Virus record (IMG/VR): IMGVR_UViG_3300029267_002377
Location: 44,854 to 108,853 of that record
Length of the DNA stretch: 64,000 nucleotides
Direction: 5' to 3' (one strand)
DNA from: a virus
Positions 5,789-47,908 of the stretch are shown here, in pieces. The notes below the pieces were generated by a model. It was not told the DNA's origin. It ran no database searches and saw nothing but the letters and a program-made list of their open reading frames with translations. How positions within the stretch are numbered: position 1 is the stretch's first letter; each line of letters begins with the position of its first letter. The position numbers were made by a program, and so were the translations under genes.

Positions 5789-6125
5789 GTTAGGTTCCGA
5801 CCTAGAGCGCGCCTTCGAGACGCAGGTCAAAATAGCAGGTCTCCCAGAGCCAGTGCGGGAGTACCATTTTCATCCCTTTAGAGACTATAGAGCAGACTTC
5901 GCCTGGCCAGGACATTTGATTTTAGTAGAGTGTCAGGGACTGACTTGGGTGCCTGGAAAAGGTCACGCTAGGGGGTCGCAGTACGAGAAAGACGTCAAGA
6001 AGCACAACTCGGCCGTTCGCTTGGGATGGAGAGTGTTTTGGATTACAACTTCGATGTTAAGAGTAGATCCAGCCTCATTTATGGAGATGCTGGGAGAAAT
6101 GATGGGAGTGGAAACTTATGACTGA
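5766..6125 (+). CDS. DUF559/Vsr-like PD-(D/E)XK endonuclease
   Basis: REYHFHP..YRADFAWP..VECQG..KHNSA..GWRVF. Confidence 0.75.
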   Translation: MNTQEISELGSDLERAFETQVKIAGLPEPVREYHFHPFRDYRADFAWPGHLILVECQGLTWVPGKGHARGSQYEKDVKKHNSAVRLGWRVFWITTSMLRVDPASFMEMLGEMMGVETYD

Positions 6126-9801: not shown

Positions 9802-10750
9802 TCAGATAGTTGGTGAGATTGAAAACGAACTCAACCTAGAGAAGTGGTTCCAAAAGGGTGGACCCGGCTCTGGTCACTGGGGTCATAGGGGTCGGAAGGG
9901 GAAACGAGGGGGTAGTGCTCCTTCTAGAGGGTTGGCTAAGTTGTCTGCTCCAGTTGGGAACGCTGGTGTTGAGGGTAATAGGGGAGTTGACAAGTTGCTC
10001 ACTGACACCTTATTTCCTGGGGAGGAGGTAGTTACCAAACCAAAACCAGGGGATTGGGAATACGCTACTACCAATGAAAGAGCCAAACTCAAAGCCCAAG
10101 TGGCAAGAGACCTTTCTGAGGTATCTGGGGTTACAGAACAAGAAGCAGCTGACTTTGTGAGGCAGTGGGCGCACTCCTCTAACGACAACGATATGCGCTC
10201 TTTGGCTGTGCAGCAAGATGCGGCGAAGGAGTTTGGCCTTAAGACATCGGAGTTTACTCAAGGTAAGATTGATAACATGAAAGAATACAGACAGAAACAG
10301 CTAAAAAGACTAGAGGAGGGATATACTATAGAGCAACTTGGAGTGCGATGGGCAAGTGTAAATCCTTTGATGGAGAGTGATAAACAGCGAGCCCTCCTGA
10401 GAAGCATGTACAACGAGACACAAGCCGAACTGAAAGCGAGGGGAATTAAGGAGGTTCGGCTGTATAGGGGAGCTAGATTGCCGGATGATGGAAAATGGCC
10501 AGATAGAATCGGTGGTGCTATACCGGTTGAGACAAATGCAGTGGAGAGTTGGTCTGTTAGCGCACGTGTTGCGAGGAATTTTGCTACTCCTCAGAGTGGT
10601 GGTGACATAGGGGTGGTATTTGTAACGGTGGTTCCAGCCAATCGCATTCTGTCAACTCCTGCAACTGGTTTTGGCTGTCTAAGAGAGGGAGAGGTTGTTG
10701 TCTTGGGGGGAATTGATGGAGATAATGCTAGAGTGGCGGGGATAAGATGA
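9791..10750 (+). CDS. GGPGSG-tagged effector 1: R-S-E ADP-ribosyltransferase-like
   Basis: Tag starts at 9857; VRLYRG, VESWS, REGEVVV triad motifs. Confidence 0.75.
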   Translation: MLPNQIVGEIENELNLEKWFQKGGPGSGHWGHRGRKGKRGGSAPSRGLAKLSAPVGNAGVEGNRGVDKLLTDTLFPGEEVVTKPKPGDWEYATTNERAKLKAQVARDLSEVSGVTEQEAADFVRQWAHSSNDNDMRSLAVQQDAAKEFGLKTSEFTQGKIDNMKEYRQKQLKRLEEGYTIEQLGVRWASVNPLMESDKQRALLRSMYNETQAELKARGIKEVRLYRGARLPDDGKWPDRIGGAIPVETNAVESWSVSARVARNFATPQSGGDIGVVFVTVVPANRILSTPATGFGCLREGEVVVLGGIDGDNARVAGIR

Positions 10751-21800: not shown

Positions 21801-22694
21801 ATGGCAAAAGATATGGGCGTGGAAGGAATAGATTACATAGTTTGTAGGGTATGCGGTGCCAAGGCAAGGCGTTTAGATAACCGCCATCTACCGTTTAAGC
21901 ATGGGATATCTTCGGTAGAGTATCTGGAGAGGTTTCCTGAAGCACCGCTAATGTGCAGTGAGACGAGGAGGAAATATTCCAAGACCACTAAGGAGGCGTG
22001 GAGTCGGGGAGACCACAGTAGTGGTGAAACAACTCGGAAAAAATCTAGAGCAGCAACTGCAGCGTGGAAGGATCCTGATAGACATCATGAGATGTCGGGT
22101 AAGATAAAGGAATCTTGGGATAGGGGCGATCACGAGGGAGCATGGACGGAGGAACTCCGAGTACGGCAATCTAGGAAGATAAGGCAGTGGTGTGAGAATA
22201 ACCCGGATGAGGTACAGGCTAATATGCGGAGAGCCCGAGAGGCTAAAGTTCTACTTGGAAACCGGGCGGTGTATACCGACGAAGTCCGTGCAAGGATGTC
22301 TGAGAGCGTAAAAGAGGCTTGGCGGAGAGGCGACTACGATGGAGTTTTTGACTCCCCTACTTCTATAGAGATTGATGTATCTCGGGCTCTGGATGAGAAG
22401 GGGATTAGGCACATATCTCAGTATAGGCCGAAGGGGTATTATAGGATCTACGATGAGTTCGTGCCTCCCAGGACACTAATTGAGGTTCAAGGGTCCTACT
22501 GGCATACTCTCCCTGACATGCAGGAGCGAGATATAGAAAAGGCTAGGTGGGCGCATCAGAATGGATACTTTGTGGTTGCAATCTGGGATTTTCAACTGGA
22601 GGAGTACGGAGCAGATTTTTTAGTTGAGAATTGGATTCTGCCGCTAAGTTCTACCAAGGGTGTGGGGGCTCCTCATATGGAGAGGTTATTCTAA
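21801..22694 (+). CDS. free-standing endonuclease (zinc finger + NUMOD3-like repeats + Vsr/DUF559 nuclease)
   Basis: CRVC..HLPFKH; repeated MS..KEAW.RGD; YDEF..IEVQGSYWH..RD..IWD. Confidence 0.75.
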   Translation: MAKDMGVEGIDYIVCRVCGAKARRLDNRHLPFKHGISSVEYLERFPEAPLMCSETRRKYSKTTKEAWSRGDHSSGETTRKKSRAATAAWKDPDRHHEMSGKIKESWDRGDHEGAWTEELRVRQSRKIRQWCENNPDEVQANMRRAREAKVLLGNRAVYTDEVRARMSESVKEAWRRGDYDGVFDSPTSIEIDVSRALDEKGIRHISQYRPKGYYRIYDEFVPPRTLIEVQGSYWHTLPDMQERDIEKARWAHQNGYFVVAIWDFQLEEYGADFLVENWILPLSSTKGVGAPHMERLF

Positions 22695-24160
22695 TGGCAG
22701 CAGAACCGAAGAGAAGATCAGTAGCATATCTGGATGTAAACACAAGACCATTTTTACAGCCGTCTCGTGTGCCTTCTATGTTCTCAAGCACGCAGTGGCG
22801 GTATCTGGCATCAGAGCCTGTAAACCTTTCGTACCAGACACATCTTGTGAGATCCTTGAAACTTGAGTATAAGTTTACTCCAAAGAAGGGGGTGGACCCA
22901 AAGAGCGATGAAGTATTAGAGATAACTGAGTATTATGAGGAACTTTTCGAGCATGTTAGGTTCGATCTCCTAAAGGTTATGTGGGAGAAAGATAGCTACG
23001 ATCTACCTTTTGGGGGTTCTTTAGAGATTATGTGGTGGCCAGATGGTGCGTTTGGTGGGAAGTTCCCTGCTGGTTACCCTGCTGGAATAGTGCACGTGGA
23101 TGCTGGTACGATGTATATCAATCAAGGCAACCCAAACTATCCATACGTCCAGATGGATCCGAATGACAATCAGCGGCCAATCGCGTTTAAACGTCGAGAA
23201 ATTGCTCGACTTATGTACCTTCCGCAGACGAGCATAAAGCTCTTTGGGTATCAAAAAAGCCCTGTAGAACAAAATTATCAAGTGATAGAAGCGTTGGCAA
23301 GGCTTTATACTTATGATTTGAAAAGTTTATCGGATACCCCCATTGCAGGAATCTTGGATTTAATGGATTTCTCGGAAGCGGACGTGACAGAGTGGAAAAA
23401 AGGTTTCGAAGAAATGATGATGGGTGTGAATCCCATTAAGATTCCTTTGCTGTATGAACACGAGACTCCTGCCAAATTTGTTCCTTTTGGTCAACCTGAG
23501 CTGAATGTTAGCGAAAAATGGAAGCATTACGCGGAGAAATGTGGAACACCATATGGTTTGACCATAGGTAGCCTTGGCCTGGCGGAGCACGATAGGACGC
23601 TTGCTGGAGCTCGTGTACAGAGGTTAACTACCCAACGCACTGGCGTGGGTGGGTTCGCCTACGACGAGAAGCGGGCGATCAACCGGCAGTTCTTCCCGCC
23701 AGATTGCCCAATCATGTTCGATTGGGACGTTCCTGAGATTGAGGACGTAGTCAAACGGCGCCAGGCTGAGGGTTTGCGAATTGCTTACCTGGGTCAGATG
23801 GTAGGAGCTGGGGCACTGGCAGCAGAGGATATGCTAGAGCAGGCAGTTGAAGACGGAATATTTTCAATCCCTGTTAAACCGGGAGCAATACAAGAAGGAA
23901 TCCAGGGTCTGCCCAAACCTCCTGCCCAAAAGGAAGTTCCACCTAAGGCTCAAAAACCAAAAGGAGAATATCCTGAGTATCCTCCCGCAGTGAAAGCTGC
24001 CCATATAGTCGAGGAAACCCTCCTGTTGAAGCAAGACGTAGGAGATGACCTTGAACAAACCAAAGCTTTTAAAATGATGCAAGATGTCCTAGCGGATCAG
24101 TTGTATGGAAAGGCAGTAAAGGGAAGCATCGAGAACATTTTCAATCAGCTAAAGGAGTAG
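22694..24160 (+). CDS. portal protein
   Basis: Position after TerL, size, HVDAGT..YVQ, FGYQKSPVE patterns. Confidence 0.7.
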   Translation: MAAEPKRRSVAYLDVNTRPFLQPSRVPSMFSSTQWRYLASEPVNLSYQTHLVRSLKLEYKFTPKKGVDPKSDEVLEITEYYEELFEHVRFDLLKVMWEKDSYDLPFGGSLEIMWWPDGAFGGKFPAGYPAGIVHVDAGTMYINQGNPNYPYVQMDPNDNQRPIAFKRREIARLMYLPQTSIKLFGYQKSPVEQNYQVIEALARLYTYDLKSLSDTPIAGILDLMDFSEADVTEWKKGFEEMMMGVNPIKIPLLYEHETPAKFVPFGQPELNVSEKWKHYAEKCGTPYGLTIGSLGLAEHDRTLAGARVQRLTTQRTGVGGFAYDEKRAINRQFFPPDCPIMFDWDVPEIEDVVKRRQAEGLRIAYLGQMVGAGALAAEDMLEQAVEDGIFSIPVKPGAIQEGIQGLPKPPAQKEVPPKAQKPKGEYPEYPPAVKAAHIVEETLLLKQDVGDDLEQTKAFKMMQDVLADQLYGKAVKGSIENIFNQLKE

Positions 24161-26421: not shown

Positions 26422-27024
26422 GTGGCTGACGAAGAACTGTGGGACCGAATAGATGAGATCCTAGACGACTCAGAAGAGTTTTGGTCAATAGACGTTTCTG
26501 ACGAACTCATTGCAGCGTTAACTCTGGCTTACTTAGACGGGCTAGAAGGGGCAGCAGAGTACATCGGAGAGCTGGCTGGGGTAGCAATTGAGTTGGCTTT
26601 TGACCTGGTAGATCCTGTTGCTCTGGAATTTATTCAAGACAGAGCAGCAGAGATGGTTCGAAACGTCAACAGAGGAACCAAACACTACCTCCGCACTATG
26701 ATCTACAACGGTCTCCAAGAAGGGATCCCCGAACAAGACCTGATAGACGGAATTTTTAAAAATTTATTCGAGCAGAGCGAGTTTAGTGAGCAAAGGATCC
26801 GCTCGATCACTCGGTTTGAAATTGCTCGTGCCCAGTCTTCTGCTTGGGAAAAGCAGATGGACGAAGTCGGCCTTGAAACAAAGCGATGGGTGACCATTGG
26901 AGCGGACGCATGTGAGGTCTGTAAGGCTAATGAGGCGATGGGTCCCCAGCCGGTTAACTCGAAGACCTTTGATAACGTTTTTGGAGAAAAGTGTGGTGGG
27001 CCGCCAGCTCACCCGAACGTCTGA
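26422..27024 (+). CDS. MuF / SPP1 gp7-like head morphogenesis domain (extends to 27813 if the UGA is recoded)
   Basis: RIRSITRFEIARA, KRWVT, CEVC, PPAHPNV-UGA-RC. Confidence 0.85.
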   Translation: MADEELWDRIDEILDDSEEFWSIDVSDELIAALTLAYLDGLEGAAEYIGELAGVAIELAFDLVDPVALEFIQDRAAEMVRNVNRGTKHYLRTMIYNGLQEGIPEQDLIDGIFKNLFEQSEFSEQRIRSITRFEIARAQSSAWEKQMDEVGLETKRWVTIGADACEVCKANEAMGPQPVNSKTFDNVFGEKCGGPPAHPNV

Positions 27025-27033
27025 AGGTGCCAC

Positions 27034-27813
27034 TTGGCAGCGACTCCGTCGGAGATCGCAGGGTTAGGAAAAGAGATTGAATTCTACGTAGGCAAGTCAG
27101 AGGTTGAGAAAGGCGGGCCTGGAAGTGGTCATTGGGGTCACAAAGGGCGCAAGGGCAGGAGAGGGGGAAGTGCTCCCAGTAAGGCGCCCGCTGTTGTGGG
27201 AAAGGTTAGTACTGTTGATTGGACTGATGACAACTATAGGAGTAAGTTTGAGGAGGCTACTGGTGGGCACCGTGTGGGTTCGCGTGTTACAAAGAACCAA
27301 GCTACTGAGATAGCATACAGTCTGCAAGGGATGCCTCAACCCGATACTGAGGTTACTTTTATCACAACAAAAACCCAAGAAGAATTCGATCGCGTATATG
27401 GAGGTTCGGCTAGGGGTTGCGCTGGATTTTACAGGGTGTACACAGATGAAATTGTTTTTGGGCCGCAAACATCTGCTAACCTAGACACACCTCAGGGGTT
27501 TGCCAGTTATGGCACAGTTTGGCATGAGTGGGGACATGCGCTGGATTACACACTGAGTGAAACGAAGGGAGTGGCTAAGTCATCCAAGGTGATTCGGGCA
27601 AAAGATAATCCGTACGACCGAGCCTGGCTTTTTGATCGGTTTCCTACGAACTATGCAAAGAAAACAGAGCGGGAATTCTTTGCAGAGAGTATAGAATGTG
27701 TGAAAAGGTACTCGAATAAAAGGGAAGTGGGTTTCTATAAGCATTATTTTCCGGAATCACATGAGATGGTGGGAGCTGTCCTTGGTGATAGAATGCCGGA
27801 GGAGTGGAAGTGA
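27034..27813 (+). CDS. GGPGSG-tagged effector: zincin metallopeptidase, in frame with MuF
   Basis: KSEVEK then tag at 27112; HEWGH, NYAKKTEREFFAES. Confidence 0.75.
   Translation: MAATPSEIAGLGKEIEFYVGKSEVEKGGPGSGHWGHKGRKGRRGGSAPSKAPAVVGKVSTVDWTDDNYRSKFEEATGGHRVGSRVTKNQATEIAYSLQGMPQPDTEVTFITTKTQEEFDRVYGGSARGCAGFYRVYTDEIVFGPQTSANLDTPQGFASYGTVWHEWGHALDYTLSETKGVAKSSKVIRAKDNPYDRAWLFDRFPTNYAKKTEREFFAESIECVKRYSNKREVGFYKHYFPESHEMVGAVLGDRMPEEWK
27040..27059 (+). promoter_or_regulatory. bacterial SECIS-like hairpin
   Basis: GCGACUCC-GUC-GGAG(A)UCGC; loop begins GU, 23 nt after the UGA at 27022. Confidence 0.5.
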
Positions 27814-28226: not shown

Positions 28227-30368
28227 ATGCCAGATATTAGTCTCTACTTTACCAAAGCTTCTTTGCACGACGACGGCACCATGCACTGGGCTGCTACTGT
28301 TTCAGATACAGGAGAAGACAACCACAAAGAGCGAGTGGACCGAGCTTTTTTCGACAATGCTGTTGCTCATGCCGAAGAAATGGATATGATGCCGTATGCT
28401 TGTGTTTCGCATTATGACTTCGCCGGTAAGGGAATTCCTGACGAAGATTGGATAGCTGGGCCTTCCACTGTGATTTACCCGGATGGCGAGAAGTTCAAAG
28501 CAAAAGGTACTTTCTGGCCGACTGAACTGGGTAAGGCGGCCTTTACCGCAGTTCAGGAGGATATTAAAAACGATGTTCCGCATGATGAGAGAGTCCGTAT
28601 TTCGATGGGCTTCTATGATAGAACCAAGGAAGAGGAAAAGTCAGAGGCTACCGAGAAAGGCTCTCGGCGTGTTTATAGAGATGGGATTATCAAACATTTT
28701 GCATTAACTCGAGTTCCTGTTCTACCGCGGACAGAGATCGAGGCCTGGAAGGAGAAAAGTATGGTTACAAAGAAAGAAGACGCTGCTTCGATCGTTGGCG
28801 ATGAGTGGGCTGAGAAGTTAGAGCAATATTCCAGTCAAGTCGGCAAGTCTGAGGCAGGAGAGGAGGGGCTAGTCTTTAAGGGTGAGGATGTTGAGAAGGC
28901 AAAGCGCAAGAAGGTGGATAAAGACTTTGAGTACGAAAAGGAGGAACCTGGCAAGGAGACAATGGCCGAGGAAATGTGGACAGAGACTCCGGAGGAAGCC
29001 GAGGTTCCCGGACTAGATCAAGAAGCTAAGAAAGAGAATGAGGAAGAGCTTAAGAAACGAAAGAAACAGAAGTCCGAAGTGGAAAAGGCCCGGGGAGAGG
29101 GACAAGGAGTAGGTGGTCCAAAGCAAGGCGACGGTGGACCTGCTGAATGCGTTTGCCCAGAGTGCGGAGCCACAGCTCCTCACGAAGCAGGAACTCCTTG
29201 TACGAGTGTCACCTGCCCTGAGTGCGGTGCTAAGATGAGTGGAGTTGAAAAAGCTGAACTCATCGAGCTGATGATAAAGGAAGAGGATGGGGAGGTTGTC
29301 CTTTATTCAAGTAAGGGGGACAAAGTCCTAGGTAGGTTTCCTTATGGTAAGGGCAAAAAATATAAAGATAAAAAGGCCGCCCGAGCAGCTGCACACAAAC
29401 AAGAGGGAGTGGTCCAAGCCATTAAGGCTGGGAAATTCCGAGGCAAAAAGTCCGAAGCTGAGGACGGGGCGCCTAGTTTGGATGAAGCTGTGGTTGAGGA
29501 GGCTGAGGAACAATCTGAGGCAGTTGAGAAAGCAGGCCGCAAGGTTTCAGACGCTCGTCTAAAGGCTTTCGAGGATATGCAACGGCGTCTGAGTGAGCTG
29601 GGCGGGATGGTTACTTCACTGAACGAGGATATGGAAACTTGGTACAAAGACGCTCAGTACACCCCAGAAGCAGTTGTCGGTACAAGCACGGAAATGCAAC
29701 CACTTCCTGAGAACCCAGCTATTTCGATTTTAGAAGAAACTCCAGCCACTGGAGGAGAAGTTATGGCAGCAGATTTTGATGATAACATGACAAGGTTCGC
29801 AGAAGGCGTCTACAACGCAGTTACTGAAGGTGATTTGTCAGTGGCACAAGACGCGTTAAATCAGATCGCAGAAGCAATTAAATCGGAGATTACATCTATG
29901 GCAGAAGTCGGCGGTTCGGAAGCCGAGCCTGAGGAACGTGTTAAGGCTGAAGGAGTAGAGCCACCTGCCACCACACCTCTAGATGTTTTCAATATAAAGG
30001 TCAAAAGTGTGCTCGGGAGCGAGGAGCTAGACCGGAGGGGCAAGTTACAAGCCTGTCAGGAAGCGCTCGGAGATTTGGGGAATTGGATGCAGCAATCAGT
30101 CATCCAAGAGACCCCACCTTCAATGGGCGACATCCGGGAGGTTATTGTAGCTGCAGTAAATGAGGGCACAAGGCCGCTAGTGCAAGAGAATGCAACCTTG
30201 AAGGCGGAACTGGAGGATCTGAGAAACCAAATCAGCAAACCGGTAGCTGAGGCGGCGCCAATCAGGAAATCTATGTACCGCTCGAGTGGTCCTGCTCCAG
30301 AACCGAAGGAAAGCTACTCTGCCAAAGAGATCGCACGGATGACCACACCACCTGGTGTAATATACTAG
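28227..30368 (+). CDS. prohead protease-scaffold fusion
   Basis: N-terminal protease-like domain (VSHY, ISMGF, HFALTRVPV), long acidic/coiled-coil region with CPECG zinc ribbon; directly precedes the capsid gene. Confidence 0.7.
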   Translation: MPDISLYFTKASLHDDGTMHWAATVSDTGEDNHKERVDRAFFDNAVAHAEEMDMMPYACVSHYDFAGKGIPDEDWIAGPSTVIYPDGEKFKAKGTFWPTELGKAAFTAVQEDIKNDVPHDERVRISMGFYDRTKEEEKSEATEKGSRRVYRDGIIKHFALTRVPVLPRTEIEAWKEKSMVTKKEDAASIVGDEWAEKLEQYSSQVGKSEAGEEGLVFKGEDVEKAKRKKVDKDFEYEKEEPGKETMAEEMWTETPEEAEVPGLDQEAKKENEEELKKRKKQKSEVEKARGEGQGVGGPKQGDGGPAECVCPECGATAPHEAGTPCTSVTCPECGAKMSGVEKAELIELMIKEEDGEVVLYSSKGDKVLGRFPYGKGKKYKDKKAARAAAHKQEGVVQAIKAGKFRGKKSEAEDGAPSLDEAVVEEAEEQSEAVEKAGRKVSDARLKAFEDMQRRLSELGGMVTSLNEDMETWYKDAQYTPEAVVGTSTEMQPLPENPAISILEETPATGGEVMAADFDDNMTRFAEGVYNAVTEGDLSVAQDALNQIAEAIKSEITSMAEVGGSEAEPEERVKAEGVEPPATTPLDVFNIKVKSVLGSEELDRRGKLQACQEALGDLGNWMQQSVIQETPPSMGDIREVIVAAVNEGTRPLVQENATLKAELEDLRNQISKPVAEAAPIRKSMYRSSGPAPEPKESYSAKEIARMTTPPGVIY

Positions 30369-41366: not shown

Positions 41367-41606
41367 TTGACAGAATTAAGTCCGTTGACTGCACTGTTTG
41401 TTTATCAATCGGGCGCTGTTGTTATCAGTGTAGTCTACGCATATATCTTCTATAAAGTGGTTGTTATTATTATAGAGCGGTTCGCCCCGCTGTTGGAGCG
41501 GTATCTGGATCAGATGGCCGGTATCTCCCAAACTCAGGGGGAAATTCTAGAAGTTTTGCGAAGGCTTAATGGTAAGGCAGTAAAAAAGAAAGATGAGGAA
41601 AATTGA
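41367..41606 (+). CDS. single-TM protein with coiled coil (holin-like)
   Basis: Hydrophobic helix followed by a charged tail. Confidence 0.45.
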   Translation: MTELSPLTALFVYQSGAVVISVVYAYIFYKVVVIIIERFAPLLERYLDQMAGISQTQGEILEVLRRLNGKAVKKKDEEN

Positions 41607-41823
41607 CATCGCATACCTTTGGGGGAGCGGGAGGCAGGAGTACGGCCCCGTCACATACACGCTTTACATTTTCAATCCTTGGGCGGATGTCTGGGATGTA
41701 GATGCTGAGCAGATGCTCGGGTTGACAAAGAAACGGAAAGGCTGAGGGGATAATTCGGACCGAGTTCGGCTCTACGGGACACAAGAAGAAGTTGAATCTG
41801 GTGAGGTAGAATGGCAAAACTAG
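41593..41823 (+). CDS. 76-aa protein with in-frame UGA (candidate selenoprotein); resembles the TerL C-terminal extension
   Basis: MRKIDIAYLWG..YGPVTYTLY..KKRKG-UGA-GDNSDRVRLYG..WQN*; read-through form overlaps the next start codon. Confidence 0.5.
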
Positions 41824-42146
41824 CAATCACAACTAATCGAATCAAGATATGGGGGCACGGAAATATCACAACTGGAGATCCGGAGCCTATTGATCCCAAT
41901 GGCCCACAAGTAAACGGAGTGCCTACTGGGTATCCAACAAAGAGAGTGGTCCTTAAGGCGTGGACACAGAATACTGCTGGTCAATGGATCGCCGTTTGGG
42001 ACCAGAGTCGGCAATCATATTATCCTCTTGGTCCTGGAGATGAGCTGGATTGCCTTGTAAATAATACAAATCTTTTTCGTGTGAATGCTTCAGCAGGAAA
42101 CCAAGGTCTAAGTGTGTACATGGAGTTGCAAACAGGCGAGACCTAG
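41811..42146 (+). CDS. beta-rich protein, possibly a virion/decoration protein
   Basis: VVLKA..N..YPLGPGD pattern. Confidence 0.5.
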   Translation: MAKLAITTNRIKIWGHGNITTGDPEPIDPNGPQVNGVPTGYPTKRVVLKAWTQNTAGQWIAVWDQSRQSYYPLGPGDELDCLVNNTNLFRVNASAGNQGLSVYMELQTGET

Positions 42147-44085: not shown

Positions 44086-45593
44086 ACAAATTCGGGTTCT
44101 TCATACAAACTCCTGGAGCGGGATTAGATTTAATCGAGCGGTACAAACCTAAGGCAGTCCTCCTAATGGACGCCGAGAGCCAACATATCGCTCAGGTTAG
44201 AGAAGCTTCTCCAGATACGACTGTCCTTTATTGGATGCACGAGGGAGACAGAGACTGGAGGACAACAGATCCTGAGTGGTGGGCGGGACAGATTTGGAAT
44301 AAAGTCTCAGAGAATCCCCCAGATATAACAACTTACTGGAACGAGCCACTTTGGCAAGGAGATTATCAATCTTTCCCTGAGTTTGACGCTCGTCAGGCTG
44401 AGTTTATCCGGGTGATGCGGTCTCATGGAGTCAAAGTAGGGGCATTTCGGTTTGCTGAAGGGAATTTCACTCAAGATGGGCCACGACTTGACGAATACTT
44501 TCCCGAAAGCGTAGAGGAACTAGATTGTATTTTCATTAATGAGTATTGGTTCCCACACTACTGGTCAGATGGAATGCAAGGTTGGCACTGCGCCCGATGG
44601 CCCTACTGGTTGCAGTGGCTAGAAGAAGCTGGGAAACCTAATGTAGATGTTTATGTCACTGAGTGTGGAATCACGAGTGCTATAAATGGAGCTGGCCCTG
44701 ATGAGGGTTGGATGGGTCAAACAGCAAAAGACTATGGAGTGACAGATGAGACATACCTGCAAGGATTGAGGGAGTATCACGAACTTTGTTGTCAAGATTC
44801 ACGGGTCATGGCGGTTCTCCCCTTCATCTGGTATCCCTGGCCGGGCCAGTGGGGGACGTTTAGACATGATAACCGGCCAGAAATATACGGCCCAATAATG
44901 GAGATGGATGCTCCTGGGCCACCCAATGGAGGCGATATGTTAACAGTTTACGACTTAGATGGAAACGCTCTTACTGGAGCAGCAGCTGCGGAGGAGATGG
45001 CTAAGTACGGGGTAGCGATTTCTCCTCCCTCTGGGTTGCAAGATGGTGACCACTATTATCAAATTACTACGTTGTGGGTTAAAACTGGGCATGCTAGTTT
45101 TGTCTCAACGGTAAAAGACATCAGCGGTAACCCTGTCGTCAATCCTCAAGAGACGCTAGATTTAACAAAATCTCACCGAGCTTTCTGGTGGACAGATGCA
45201 CCTGAGTTGGATCCTCAGTATACAACAGACAGAGAAGATCGAGCAGATGTGGGTGGGTTGGATCAGAACGGTGCAGGTGGGAGTGGTATGGGGACAGGGG
45301 CCTACACCGACTATTATCAAGATCCTTGGACGGGCCCTCATCGGGCGTGGATTCGGGATCCCAACCTCCCATCAGATGAGCTTGTGGGCATTCGTATGAT
45401 TGGAATGACGAACCATGACCATGTGGATGCGTTGTGGGAAGAGAAGATCTACCAAGGCGGGGAACCCCCAGTACCCCCAACCCCAGGAACGATTGGTCAG
45501 ATTATCGCCAATATGCGACTGGAACTGACTCAGATCGAAACGATTCTATCCGAGTACGATGAGCTAGCGGAACAACTTGCAGACATGATATAG
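44082..45593 (+). CDS. TIM-barrel glycoside hydrolase-like protein (candidate endolysin)
   Basis: Clan GH-A-like WNEP and VTECG; C-terminal accessory domain; followed by a 2-TM gene. Confidence 0.6.
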   Translation: MNKFGFFIQTPGAGLDLIERYKPKAVLLMDAESQHIAQVREASPDTTVLYWMHEGDRDWRTTDPEWWAGQIWNKVSENPPDITTYWNEPLWQGDYQSFPEFDARQAEFIRVMRSHGVKVGAFRFAEGNFTQDGPRLDEYFPESVEELDCIFINEYWFPHYWSDGMQGWHCARWPYWLQWLEEAGKPNVDVYVTECGITSAINGAGPDEGWMGQTAKDYGVTDETYLQGLREYHELCCQDSRVMAVLPFIWYPWPGQWGTFRHDNRPEIYGPIMEMDAPGPPNGGDMLTVYDLDGNALTGAAAAEEMAKYGVAISPPSGLQDGDHYYQITTLWVKTGHASFVSTVKDISGNPVVNPQETLDLTKSHRAFWWTDAPELDPQYTTDREDRADVGGLDQNGAGGSGMGTGAYTDYYQDPWTGPHRAWIRDPNLPSDELVGIRMIGMTNHDHVDALWEEKIYQGGEPPVPPTPGTIGQIIANMRLELTQIETILSEYDELAEQLADMI

Positions 45594-46468: not shown

Positions 46469-47908
46469 ATGGAACTACTAGACCTATATCACACGTGCGC
46501 GGAAGAGAAACGGCAGGGCAAGAAAATTGTCCTTTGTCACGGTGTTTTCGATGTAGTACATGCGGGGCATATTCAGCACCTAAAAGAAGCAAAAAGCTGC
46601 GGCGATATACTGGTTGTTACTTTAACACCAGATGAGTTTGTACGAAAGGGTCCCAGCCGCCCGGTTTTCAACCAACAAACGAGAGCTTCTGTCGTAGAGG
46701 CGATTAGGTATGTAGATTTAGTCGCCGTAAATGAATCCCCAGATGCTATGGATGTTTTGGAAGCGATTCGGCCAGACGTCTATTGTAAAGGAGAGGAAGT
46801 TTTAGATTGCCCTTCCAACCATATTATCAAAGAAAAAGAGTTTGTAGAAGGTTACGGGGGACGAGTTGCCCTTCTGAGGATGATAGGTGACTTTTCATCT
46901 TCGAAAGTAATCAACCAAACATCTCTTGGCCCAGACCTTGAGAGACTTATTGCCAAAGTAAAGAATCTCGTTAGTTATCGCGACATTGAAAATTATTTTA
47001 CAGAACTTAGAGATCTCAAGGTTTTGGTTGTTGGAGAATACATTCGAGATGAGTATGTGCTCTGTAGGGCATTAAATCGCTCCTCAAAAGATGTTATGGT
47101 TCCGATGCAGCATCTAAGTGAGGACACGTACGCAGGAGGGGCAGCAGTAGTTGCACGTAATTTAGCTCAGTTTTGTGAAAATGTTTCTTTGGTTACTTGC
47201 GGCGATAACCTTGCCTTACAGGGAATCACCACACACCTATGCTCGCACCCAACCATCCGCAAACGGCGGCTGATAGAAAAGGGGACAAGTAGCAAGGTCG
47301 CAGAAGAGATACATCTCGATGAAGACTACCCAGAGACCATTCGCAGAGACTTAGAAAACTCCGTTGGTGCACTTCTTGGTTCTGTAGATGCTGTTATAGT
47401 TTGCGATTATGGTCATGGGCTGTTTACAAAAGATCTAATTGGTTACATTATCGGAGAATCTCCCTTCTTGGCAGTCAACGTTCAAACCAATTCAGCCAAC
47501 TATGGTTATAACCTAGTTACCAAATGGTATGATGTAGACTATGCTGTTATTGATGAGAAAGAGCTTAGATTGGCTTGCGGCGATAAGAAAGGAGCTATTG
47601 GGGATTTAGCAGCCAACCTAGACGTGGCAAATATTTTAGCAGTTACTCTCGGGCACGAGGGATCTGTCACCTACCAAGGAGGAGGATTCGTTGAGTATTT
47701 TCCTCCAGTGGCATCCTCTGTTGTAGACACAGTAGGAGCAGGGGATGCGTTTTTATCAATCACTGCTCCTTTGGTCGCTTTAGGACTTCCGCTGACTGTA
47801 GTTGGGCTCCTAGGCAACGCCTATGGGGCAATGAAGGTGTCAATATTTGGAAACAAGCCGGTTGACCCAATTGAATTTAAGAAGTTTATCAAAGGATTAC
47901 TGGCATGA
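46469..47908 (+). CDS. nucleotidyltransferase + PfkB sugar kinase fusion (HldE-like, reversed domain order)
   Basis: HGVFDVVHAGH; DYGHG; VDTVGAGDAF. Confidence 0.9.
   Translation: MELLDLYHTCAEEKRQGKKIVLCHGVFDVVHAGHIQHLKEAKSCGDILVVTLTPDEFVRKGPSRPVFNQQTRASVVEAIRYVDLVAVNESPDAMDVLEAIRPDVYCKGEEVLDCPSNHIIKEKEFVEGYGGRVALLRMIGDFSSSKVINQTSLGPDLERLIAKVKNLVSYRDIENYFTELRDLKVLVVGEYIRDEYVLCRALNRSSKDVMVPMQHLSEDTYAGGAAVVARNLAQFCENVSLVTCGDNLALQGITTHLCSHPTIRKRRLIEKGTSSKVAEEIHLDEDYPETIRRDLENSVGALLGSVDAVIVCDYGHGLFTKDLIGYIIGESPFLAVNVQTNSANYGYNLVTKWYDVDYAVIDEKELRLACGDKKGAIGDLAANLDVANILAVTLGHEGSVTYQGGGFVEYFPPVASSVVDTVGAGDAFLSITAPLVALGLPLTVVGLLGNAYGAMKVSIFGNKPVDPIEFKKFIKGLLA

Follow-up and report, generated by a model that had tools for sequence, protein, structure and literature searches.

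An in-frame UGA at a cysteine column of a phage MuF gene: a candidate selenoprotein of the virion

Does a UGA codon that interrupts a phage head gene at a cysteine position end the protein, or is it decoded? The question is raised by a MuF gene (SPP1 gp7 / Mu F-like) in a 64,000-nt stretch of phage DNA, here called the window (positions 44,854 to 108,853 of IMG/VR record IMGVR_UViG_3300029267_002377). The phage is uncultured, from sediment, and represented by a single phage-like contig of 108,853 bp. The frame 26422-27813 comprises 463 codons and is open save for TGA 27022-27024. It encodes the MuF core before the TGA and a linker, a tag and a peptidase-like cargo after it. A hairpin resembling a bacterial selenocysteine insertion sequence (SECIS) follows the TGA. 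Decoding of UGA 27022, most likely as selenocysteine (Sec), is given a probability of about 0.5; the product would be a phage selenoprotein.

MuF core and position of the UGA

The elements at the site are the following (window positions).

26422..27021, + strand. MuF core, 200 codons; recognised by PHROG matches, CxxC (C164, C167) and PPAHP (H197).
27022..27024, + strand. In-frame TGA at the first Cys column of HPxx-C-x-C; placed by alignment with homologs bearing Cys or Glu.
27025..27033, + strand. Codons AGG TGC CAC (R-C-H), with the second Cys of the motif; AAGGTG is also weakly Shine-Dalgarno-like. Recognised by RCHL identity across lineages.
27040..27059, + strand. Candidate SECIS hairpin GCGACUCC-GUC-GGAG(A)UCGC; recognised by folding and by the criteria for bacterial SECIS elements (bSECIS).

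The initial annotation described a MuF open reading frame (ORF) ending at PPAHPNV-TGA (27022-27024), with the frame continuing to 27813 (463 amino acids, aa), and translation bears this out. Read across the TGA, the protein is ...PPAHPNV-U-RCHLAATPSEIAGLGKEIEFYVGKSEVEK-GGPGSGHWGH.... PHROG head-morphogenesis and minor-head families match the MuF part (E 4e-13 to 5e-15), the score rising from 49.8 to 56.1 bits once the TGA is read through. In Pfam no match is found for the window's own protein, MuF PF04233 included; a relative 68% identical to it, P0172, has a precomputed PF04233 match. A HMMER search returned 1500 relatives at E up to 0.001. The AlphaFold 2 model of the MuF protein has a predicted local distance difference test score of 92-98 at residues 150-210 and is confident through 201-215; Foldseek of this model against PDB gave no match.

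Both halves of the MuF motif pair are present, CEVC at residues 164-167 and PPAHPNV-[UGA]-RC. Natural stand-alone MuF proteins end about 25 aa past the CxC, at hWxG[DN]. The TGA therefore sits inside the domain, not at a domain border.

TGA is an ordinary stop elsewhere, as first annotated, and the commonest of the genome (32 of 73 long plus-strand ORFs). The standard code therefore applies, and genetic codes 4 and 25, considered as explanations, were rejected on this count. A phage suppressor tRNA was also considered and rejected, none being found in the genome.

Reality and persistence of the codon

The TGA codon is real and no assembly error. Sequencing runs X1 and X3, possibly the source samples, are identical to the window across the whole stretch. 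An independent marsh sample (X7 record 5, 2025) contains a contig identical over 26948-27060, TGA kept. A JGI contig of 89% DNA identity, L001, has retained TGA, frame and hairpin despite a different cargo (ART, PF03496). A change of TGY to TGA by sequencing error, which the initial annotation asked to have checked against reads, was rejected: the codon is the same in X1, X3, X7 record 5 and L001, that is, in independent samples and in an 89%-identical strain. Window and L001 differ mostly on third codon positions (69 of 85 differences), before the TGA as well as after it. Seven JGI contigs and four Logan/ENA contigs are on record with the 200-aa and 259-aa products.

Around the UGA, window and L001 share an identical stretch of 50 nt (27013-27062). 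This is only the second-longest identical run between them and is therefore not counted as evidence for an RNA element. The longest, 64 nt at 26840-26903, is unexplained.

The column in relatives

In nine further lineages, defined by 90% clustering and 59-82% identical in protein, the recorded MuF protein sequence ends exactly at the UGA column. These proteins have 199-202 aa and end in PPAHPxx, the final residue lying one before the column. Another close protein, P0014 (96% identity), is L001's own.

Sister lineages continue through the column. P0171 and P0172 carry Cys (Y-C-RCHL), P0003 and P0174 carry Glu (E-RCHL). P0003 is a single continuous MuF-linker-tag-cargo protein across the site. 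After the column, the window shares RCHL with both the Cys lineage and the Glu lineage, in support of decoding. Canonical MuF proteins have Cys at the column without exception (64/64). Farther out in the subfamily the residue is Cys (45) or Asp (5), and in some outgroups Gly or Glu. Of the predicted alternation of Cys and UGA, an alternation of Cys with a stop is found, with P0171 and P0172 as the Cys side and with Glu in P0003 and P0174 besides. The assignment of the UGA to the first Cys of the MuF motif holds as to position; an invariant Cys does not hold, the column taking also Asp, Glu and Gly.

C164, C167 and H197 are invariant in 10/10 stop-bearing lineages, as expected if the partner Cys is still made. 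The tree was built with the UGA column left out of the alignment. P0175 (stop) branches first and the Glu pair next; the remaining group unites seven stop lineages with the Cys pair and a further pair of stop lineages. The stop-bearing lineages do not form a single clade, and the column must have changed at least three times.

Scans of IMG/VR by protein pattern found no relative. The MuF genes found adjoining a tag in IMG/VR all have TGC or TGT at the column.

A prophage-like contig of IMG/VR, L140, holds at 5900-6085 a short C-terminal MuF remnant, PPAHPN-TGA-ACVMVLS-stop. It is probably a decayed copy, with same-frame stops upstream.

A distant MuF of about 30% identity, P0163, ends in ...PLAHPA right before the same Cys column. 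SxxC replaces its CxxC, with one Cys lost. It occurs on seven contigs, an NCBI record among them, the longest of 37.8 kb. The nearest phage relative of P0163 is Methanoculleus virus Blf4 (34% identity); the protein is absent from the phage and plasmid collections searched. Loss of the Cys is as expected for a true truncation, and the contrast weakly favours decoding in the window's clade.

The candidate SECIS hairpin

The hairpin has 8 bp, one 3' bulge and a folding energy of -9.0 kcal/mol. Its loop G lies 23 nt past the UGA, G-U opening a loop of 3 nt. The bSECIS consensus of Zhang and Gladyshev, for which PMC13188914 was followed, asks for a stem of 4-16 bp and a loop of 3-9 nt with a G within its first two positions, placed 16-37 nt after the UGA, at -7.5 kcal/mol at most. 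The hairpin agrees with all four constraints quoted there, and the earlier claim of a GU-loop hairpin fitting the bacterial model is confirmed. The 'canonical' SECIS of BSepDB (PMC13326102) has the same build, a triloop with a 3' bulge.

Chance rates were counted exhaustively at random positions of the genome: 4.5% pass the bSECIS criteria, 2.6% at the strength of this hairpin and 0.7% if GU is also required. No change in the hairpin is seen in L001 or in two X7 variants with differing downstream sequence. Its 3' arm includes GGAG. Codon 27064 is TTG in L001 and is aligned with the starting Met of a relative, P0006.

Linker, tag and cargo

Downstream of the hairpin the frame continues with the following elements.

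27094..27111, + strand. KSEVEK linker; recognised by KSE[VA] motif counts.
27112..27171, + strand. Tag GGPGSGHWGHKGRKGRRGGS; the genome has 8 tag copies, spread over 7 ORFs.
27172..27813, + strand. Cargo, an HExxH zinc-peptidase-like domain with HEWGH at 27523-27537, EFFAES farther on and an ordinary TGA at the end; recognised by 31% identity to the second module of P0004.

KSE[VA] occurs once in the MuF-cargo linker, four times in a 713-aa ORF (28227-30368) adjoining the putative capsid gene, and in one case only elsewhere on the plus strand of the genome. In the relatives P0003, P0004 and P0007, where the tag is preceded by another domain, the motif lies ahead of the tag. KSE[VA], KSEVEK included, may be a cleavage site of the maturation protease, to judge from this distribution.

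The tag, GPGSG[HN]xGH...GGS, is found at 9860, 15361, 17204, 17684, 20700, 25630 and 27115, with one more copy upstream of the window. Each copy has an amphipathic leader of 18-28 aa before it and a different cargo after it. Tags of this type are found in 99 IMG/VR stretches, often several per contig.

The window's cargo has no Pfam match and no PDB sequence match; the P0004 module to which it is 31% identical matches Pfam ATLF and Peptidase_M90. Cargos of relatives are ART PF03496 (L001), a PI3/PI4-kinase-like domain (P0006) and a different HExxH domain (P0003). The assembly graph has a branch point at 27031-27060, and two contigs of a marsh run agree exactly over this interval and diverge after it. 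In L001 (1109-1804) almost every third codon position is changed from 27063 onward, with ART in place of the peptidase. Cargo swapping seems to begin directly after the hairpin.

Proposed decoding

The hairpin at 27040-27059 would recruit SelB and Sec-tRNA of the host to UGA 27022. Termination would leave a 200-aa MuF core without the second half of the Cys cluster and without the tail of about 25 aa. Decoding would give a 463-aa protein with complete MuF, U-R-C, tail, KSEVEK linker, GGPGSGHWGH tag and HExxH peptidase; its junction peptide would be HPNV-U/W/C-RCHLAATPSEIAGLGK. This protein would be built into the head beside the portal, cleaved at KSEVEK and delivered together with the DNA. 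All of these steps are proposed: Sec decoding, recourse to host factors, packaging and KSEVEK cleavage. Partial recoding might, as first suggested, set the ratio of short MuF to MuF-effector. A more extended proposal, held a little less firmly than decoding itself, is that of a sediment and marsh phage clade with a virion selenoprotein, Sec standing for a metal-binding Cys, in which selenium supply and SelB of the host gate the loading of the virion. Because the UGA lies upstream of the effector, complete MuF and injected effector would on this proposal be made only if selenium and SelB allow.

For a structural selenoprotein of the phage, as first suggested, speak the position in the motif, the Cys-bearing sisters, the stop kept in ten lineages, the conserved frame and the hairpin. 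The claim of an in-frame KSEVEK-tag-metallopeptidase stands as to frame, tag and HEWGH; a single MuF-effector polypeptide follows only if the UGA is decoded.

Several results weigh on the other side. P0003, the nearest fused homolog, carries Glu at the column, and the tolerance of Asp, Glu and Gly there would fit a metal ligand better than a redox Sec site. The TGA itself was read from DNA in the window, L001 and X7 record 5; for the nine other lineages the record is of protein ends, which would fit TAA or TAG as well. Degenerate DNA scans of IMG/VR for TGA at the column gave chance matches and the one decayed remnant on L140, and no other intact MuF. DNA relatives for comparison of the hairpin are near-identical only, and it is invariant there. 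No Rfam family matches it, SECIS families included. With GGAG in its 3' arm and the TTG at 27064 in L001, aligned with the starting Met of P0006, the hairpin could instead mask a Shine-Dalgarno sequence. No tRNA genes were found in the phage genome. The TTG start and the stand-alone tag genes, considered next, belong to the same side.

Alternative explanations

One further element is needed here.

27034..27036, + strand. TTG, from which alone an independent tag-cargo protein (259 aa) could start; assessed by Shine-Dalgarno and fold comparison.

From this TTG the tag-peptidase may be translated separately, an ancestral MuF-cargo fusion having been split by a change of TGY to TGA into two ordinary genes, the first encoding a 200-aa MuF. 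Re-initiation after termination, with AAGGTG as Shine-Dalgarno sequence, is possible; the R-C-H-L codons would have chanced to supply both this sequence and a start, which would explain a split at that very codon. As a rule the tag-cargo genes of this phage stand alone, and the split is therefore a serious rival, although on balance unlikely. Seven of the eight tags (in six of seven ORFs) lie in stand-alone genes with leaders of 18-28 aa, and the leader counted from TTG 27034 has 27 aa. TGA-AAGGTG-CCAC-TTG resembles same-frame junctions of the genome (cf. 3835, 24158), in which stop, Shine-Dalgarno sequence and start fall within about 10 nt; such single-stop junctions are frequent in this compact genome, as are TTG and GTG starts (46 of the 96 predicted). 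Among random in-frame positions, only 7.6% have a start of this quality within four codons, a rate which therefore counts for the split. Gene callers give the 200-aa and 259-aa proteins on at least 11 contigs. P0006, whose gene probably follows that of the MuF protein P0168, has an ATG start within the linker, and P0163, with the same end column and one CxxC Cys lost, fits a tolerated truncation. The start itself is poor by other measures: Shine-Dalgarno-like pairing is -3.9 kcal/mol (genome median -6.7) with a 4-nt spacer, among the weakest 12% or so of predicted starts; the region -4..+30 folds at -10.5 kcal/mol, more strongly than at 44/44 well-supported starts; and the -9 kcal/mol hairpin opens at +7. 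A split inside the MuF domain removes CxC and the conserved tail, yet CxxC is invariant in ten lineages, and RCH is identical in stop, Cys and Glu lineages though non-coding if the gene is split. The tree, moreover, demands either in-frame re-fusion by return to sense or three independent nonsense changes at one codon. Should the gene be split nevertheless, it would be an unusual fission within a conserved domain, long maintained.

Programmed leaky termination needs no selenium. A near-cognate tRNA (Trp or Cys) would read UGA-A at a few percent, so that short MuF would predominate and the MuF-effector fusion would form a small, fixed fraction, as for the A1 protein of Qbeta, where UGA is known to be read through. 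No special host machinery would be necessary. Frame and RCHL show conservation past the stop, the KSEVEK linker typical of fusions has been kept, and the identity of the inserted residue may be of no consequence in a column that takes Cys, Asp, Glu and Gly. Leakiness leaves unexplained, however, why the stop falls on the Cys codon in every lineage and why a hairpin of SECIS consensus follows; hairpin-stimulated read-through in bacteria is, to our knowledge, not established. Trp as a metal ligand would also weaken a site whose CxxC half is conserved. This explanation is accordingly regarded as improbable. Least credible of all, and close to dismissed, is an error of assembly or a pseudogene produced by recent inactivating mutation. 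One base does turn TGY into TGA, and the MuF remnant on L140 has TGA at the column. The codon recurs, however, in independent samples and in the 89%-identical strain, the stop is kept at the column in ten lineages, and differences from L001 fall on third positions (69/85) both before and after the TGA.

Relation to known systems

The prototype of bacterial selenoprotein genes is fdhF of E. coli, with a SECIS inside the ORF that is read by SelB. The MuF gene is like such genes in its in-frame UGA against Cys in homologs, in coding conserved on both sides and in a G+C-rich hairpin after the UGA. It is unlike them in being a phage gene, for a virion structural protein with an effector; in a UGA confirmed only in close relatives of the window; and in a position that resembles a metal ligand, not a redox centre. 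Read-through of the UGA by tRNA-Trp in Qbeta A1 is comparable in that occasional decoding within a phage structural gene would add a C-terminal extension at a fixed low ratio. Differences are the dsDNA phage, the stop on a conserved Cys column and the SECIS-like hairpin after it; read-through here is predicted.

MuF polymorphic toxins and polyvalent virion proteins have been described (Jamet 2017, PMC5576092; Iyer 2017, PMC5512222). Shared features are the N-terminal MuF, the swappable C-terminal effector and a gene among late head genes. Distinctive here are the stop within the MuF domain, between its two Cys pairs, and a cargo with a GGPGSGHWGH...GGS tag shared with six stand-alone cargo genes of the phage. 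The BSepDB paper (PMC13326102) and the review PMC13188914, both of 2026 and on bacterial or prokaryotic selenoproteins, mention no phage or virus.

If real, the recoding would follow the mechanism known from bacteria; new would be a virion selenoprotein of a phage gating an effector fusion. Bacteriophages would then exploit Sec recoding of the host, selenium would be carried by a structural virion protein, and a recoding event would set the amount of effector loaded into capsids. Such genes would be split systematically by gene callers.

The phage and its putative host

The phage encodes a family A DNA polymerase (PolA), a bacterial-type beta clamp (DnaN) and an HldE-like enzyme. The host is therefore taken to be a bacterium. 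An Atlas search with DnaN gave no host clue. The one MuF from a scan of genome contigs is distant and uninformative on the host; it lies on a 1.7-kb contig in a metagenome-assembled genome of Dehalococcoidia. In the phage collection searched, MuF, the putative portal and the putative capsid protein are without match, and the terminase large subunit (TerL) has matches at about 30% identity only.

A small ORF (41593-41825) has an in-frame TGA at 41743, ...KKRKG-U-GDNSDRV...; no further support for it as a second Sec candidate was found. The HldE-like gene (46469-47908) encodes a cytidylyltransferase-like domain followed by a PfkB kinase domain, an HldE-like pair. The domain order of E. coli HldE is the reverse. 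This gene may hint at a Gram-negative host. The putative portal ORF (22631-24160) has a C-terminus closely similar to the beginning of P0007. In P0007 the portal-like part runs on via GKSEVEK and the tag into an ART domain, which suggests that in some relatives cargo is fused also to the protein of the portal ORF.

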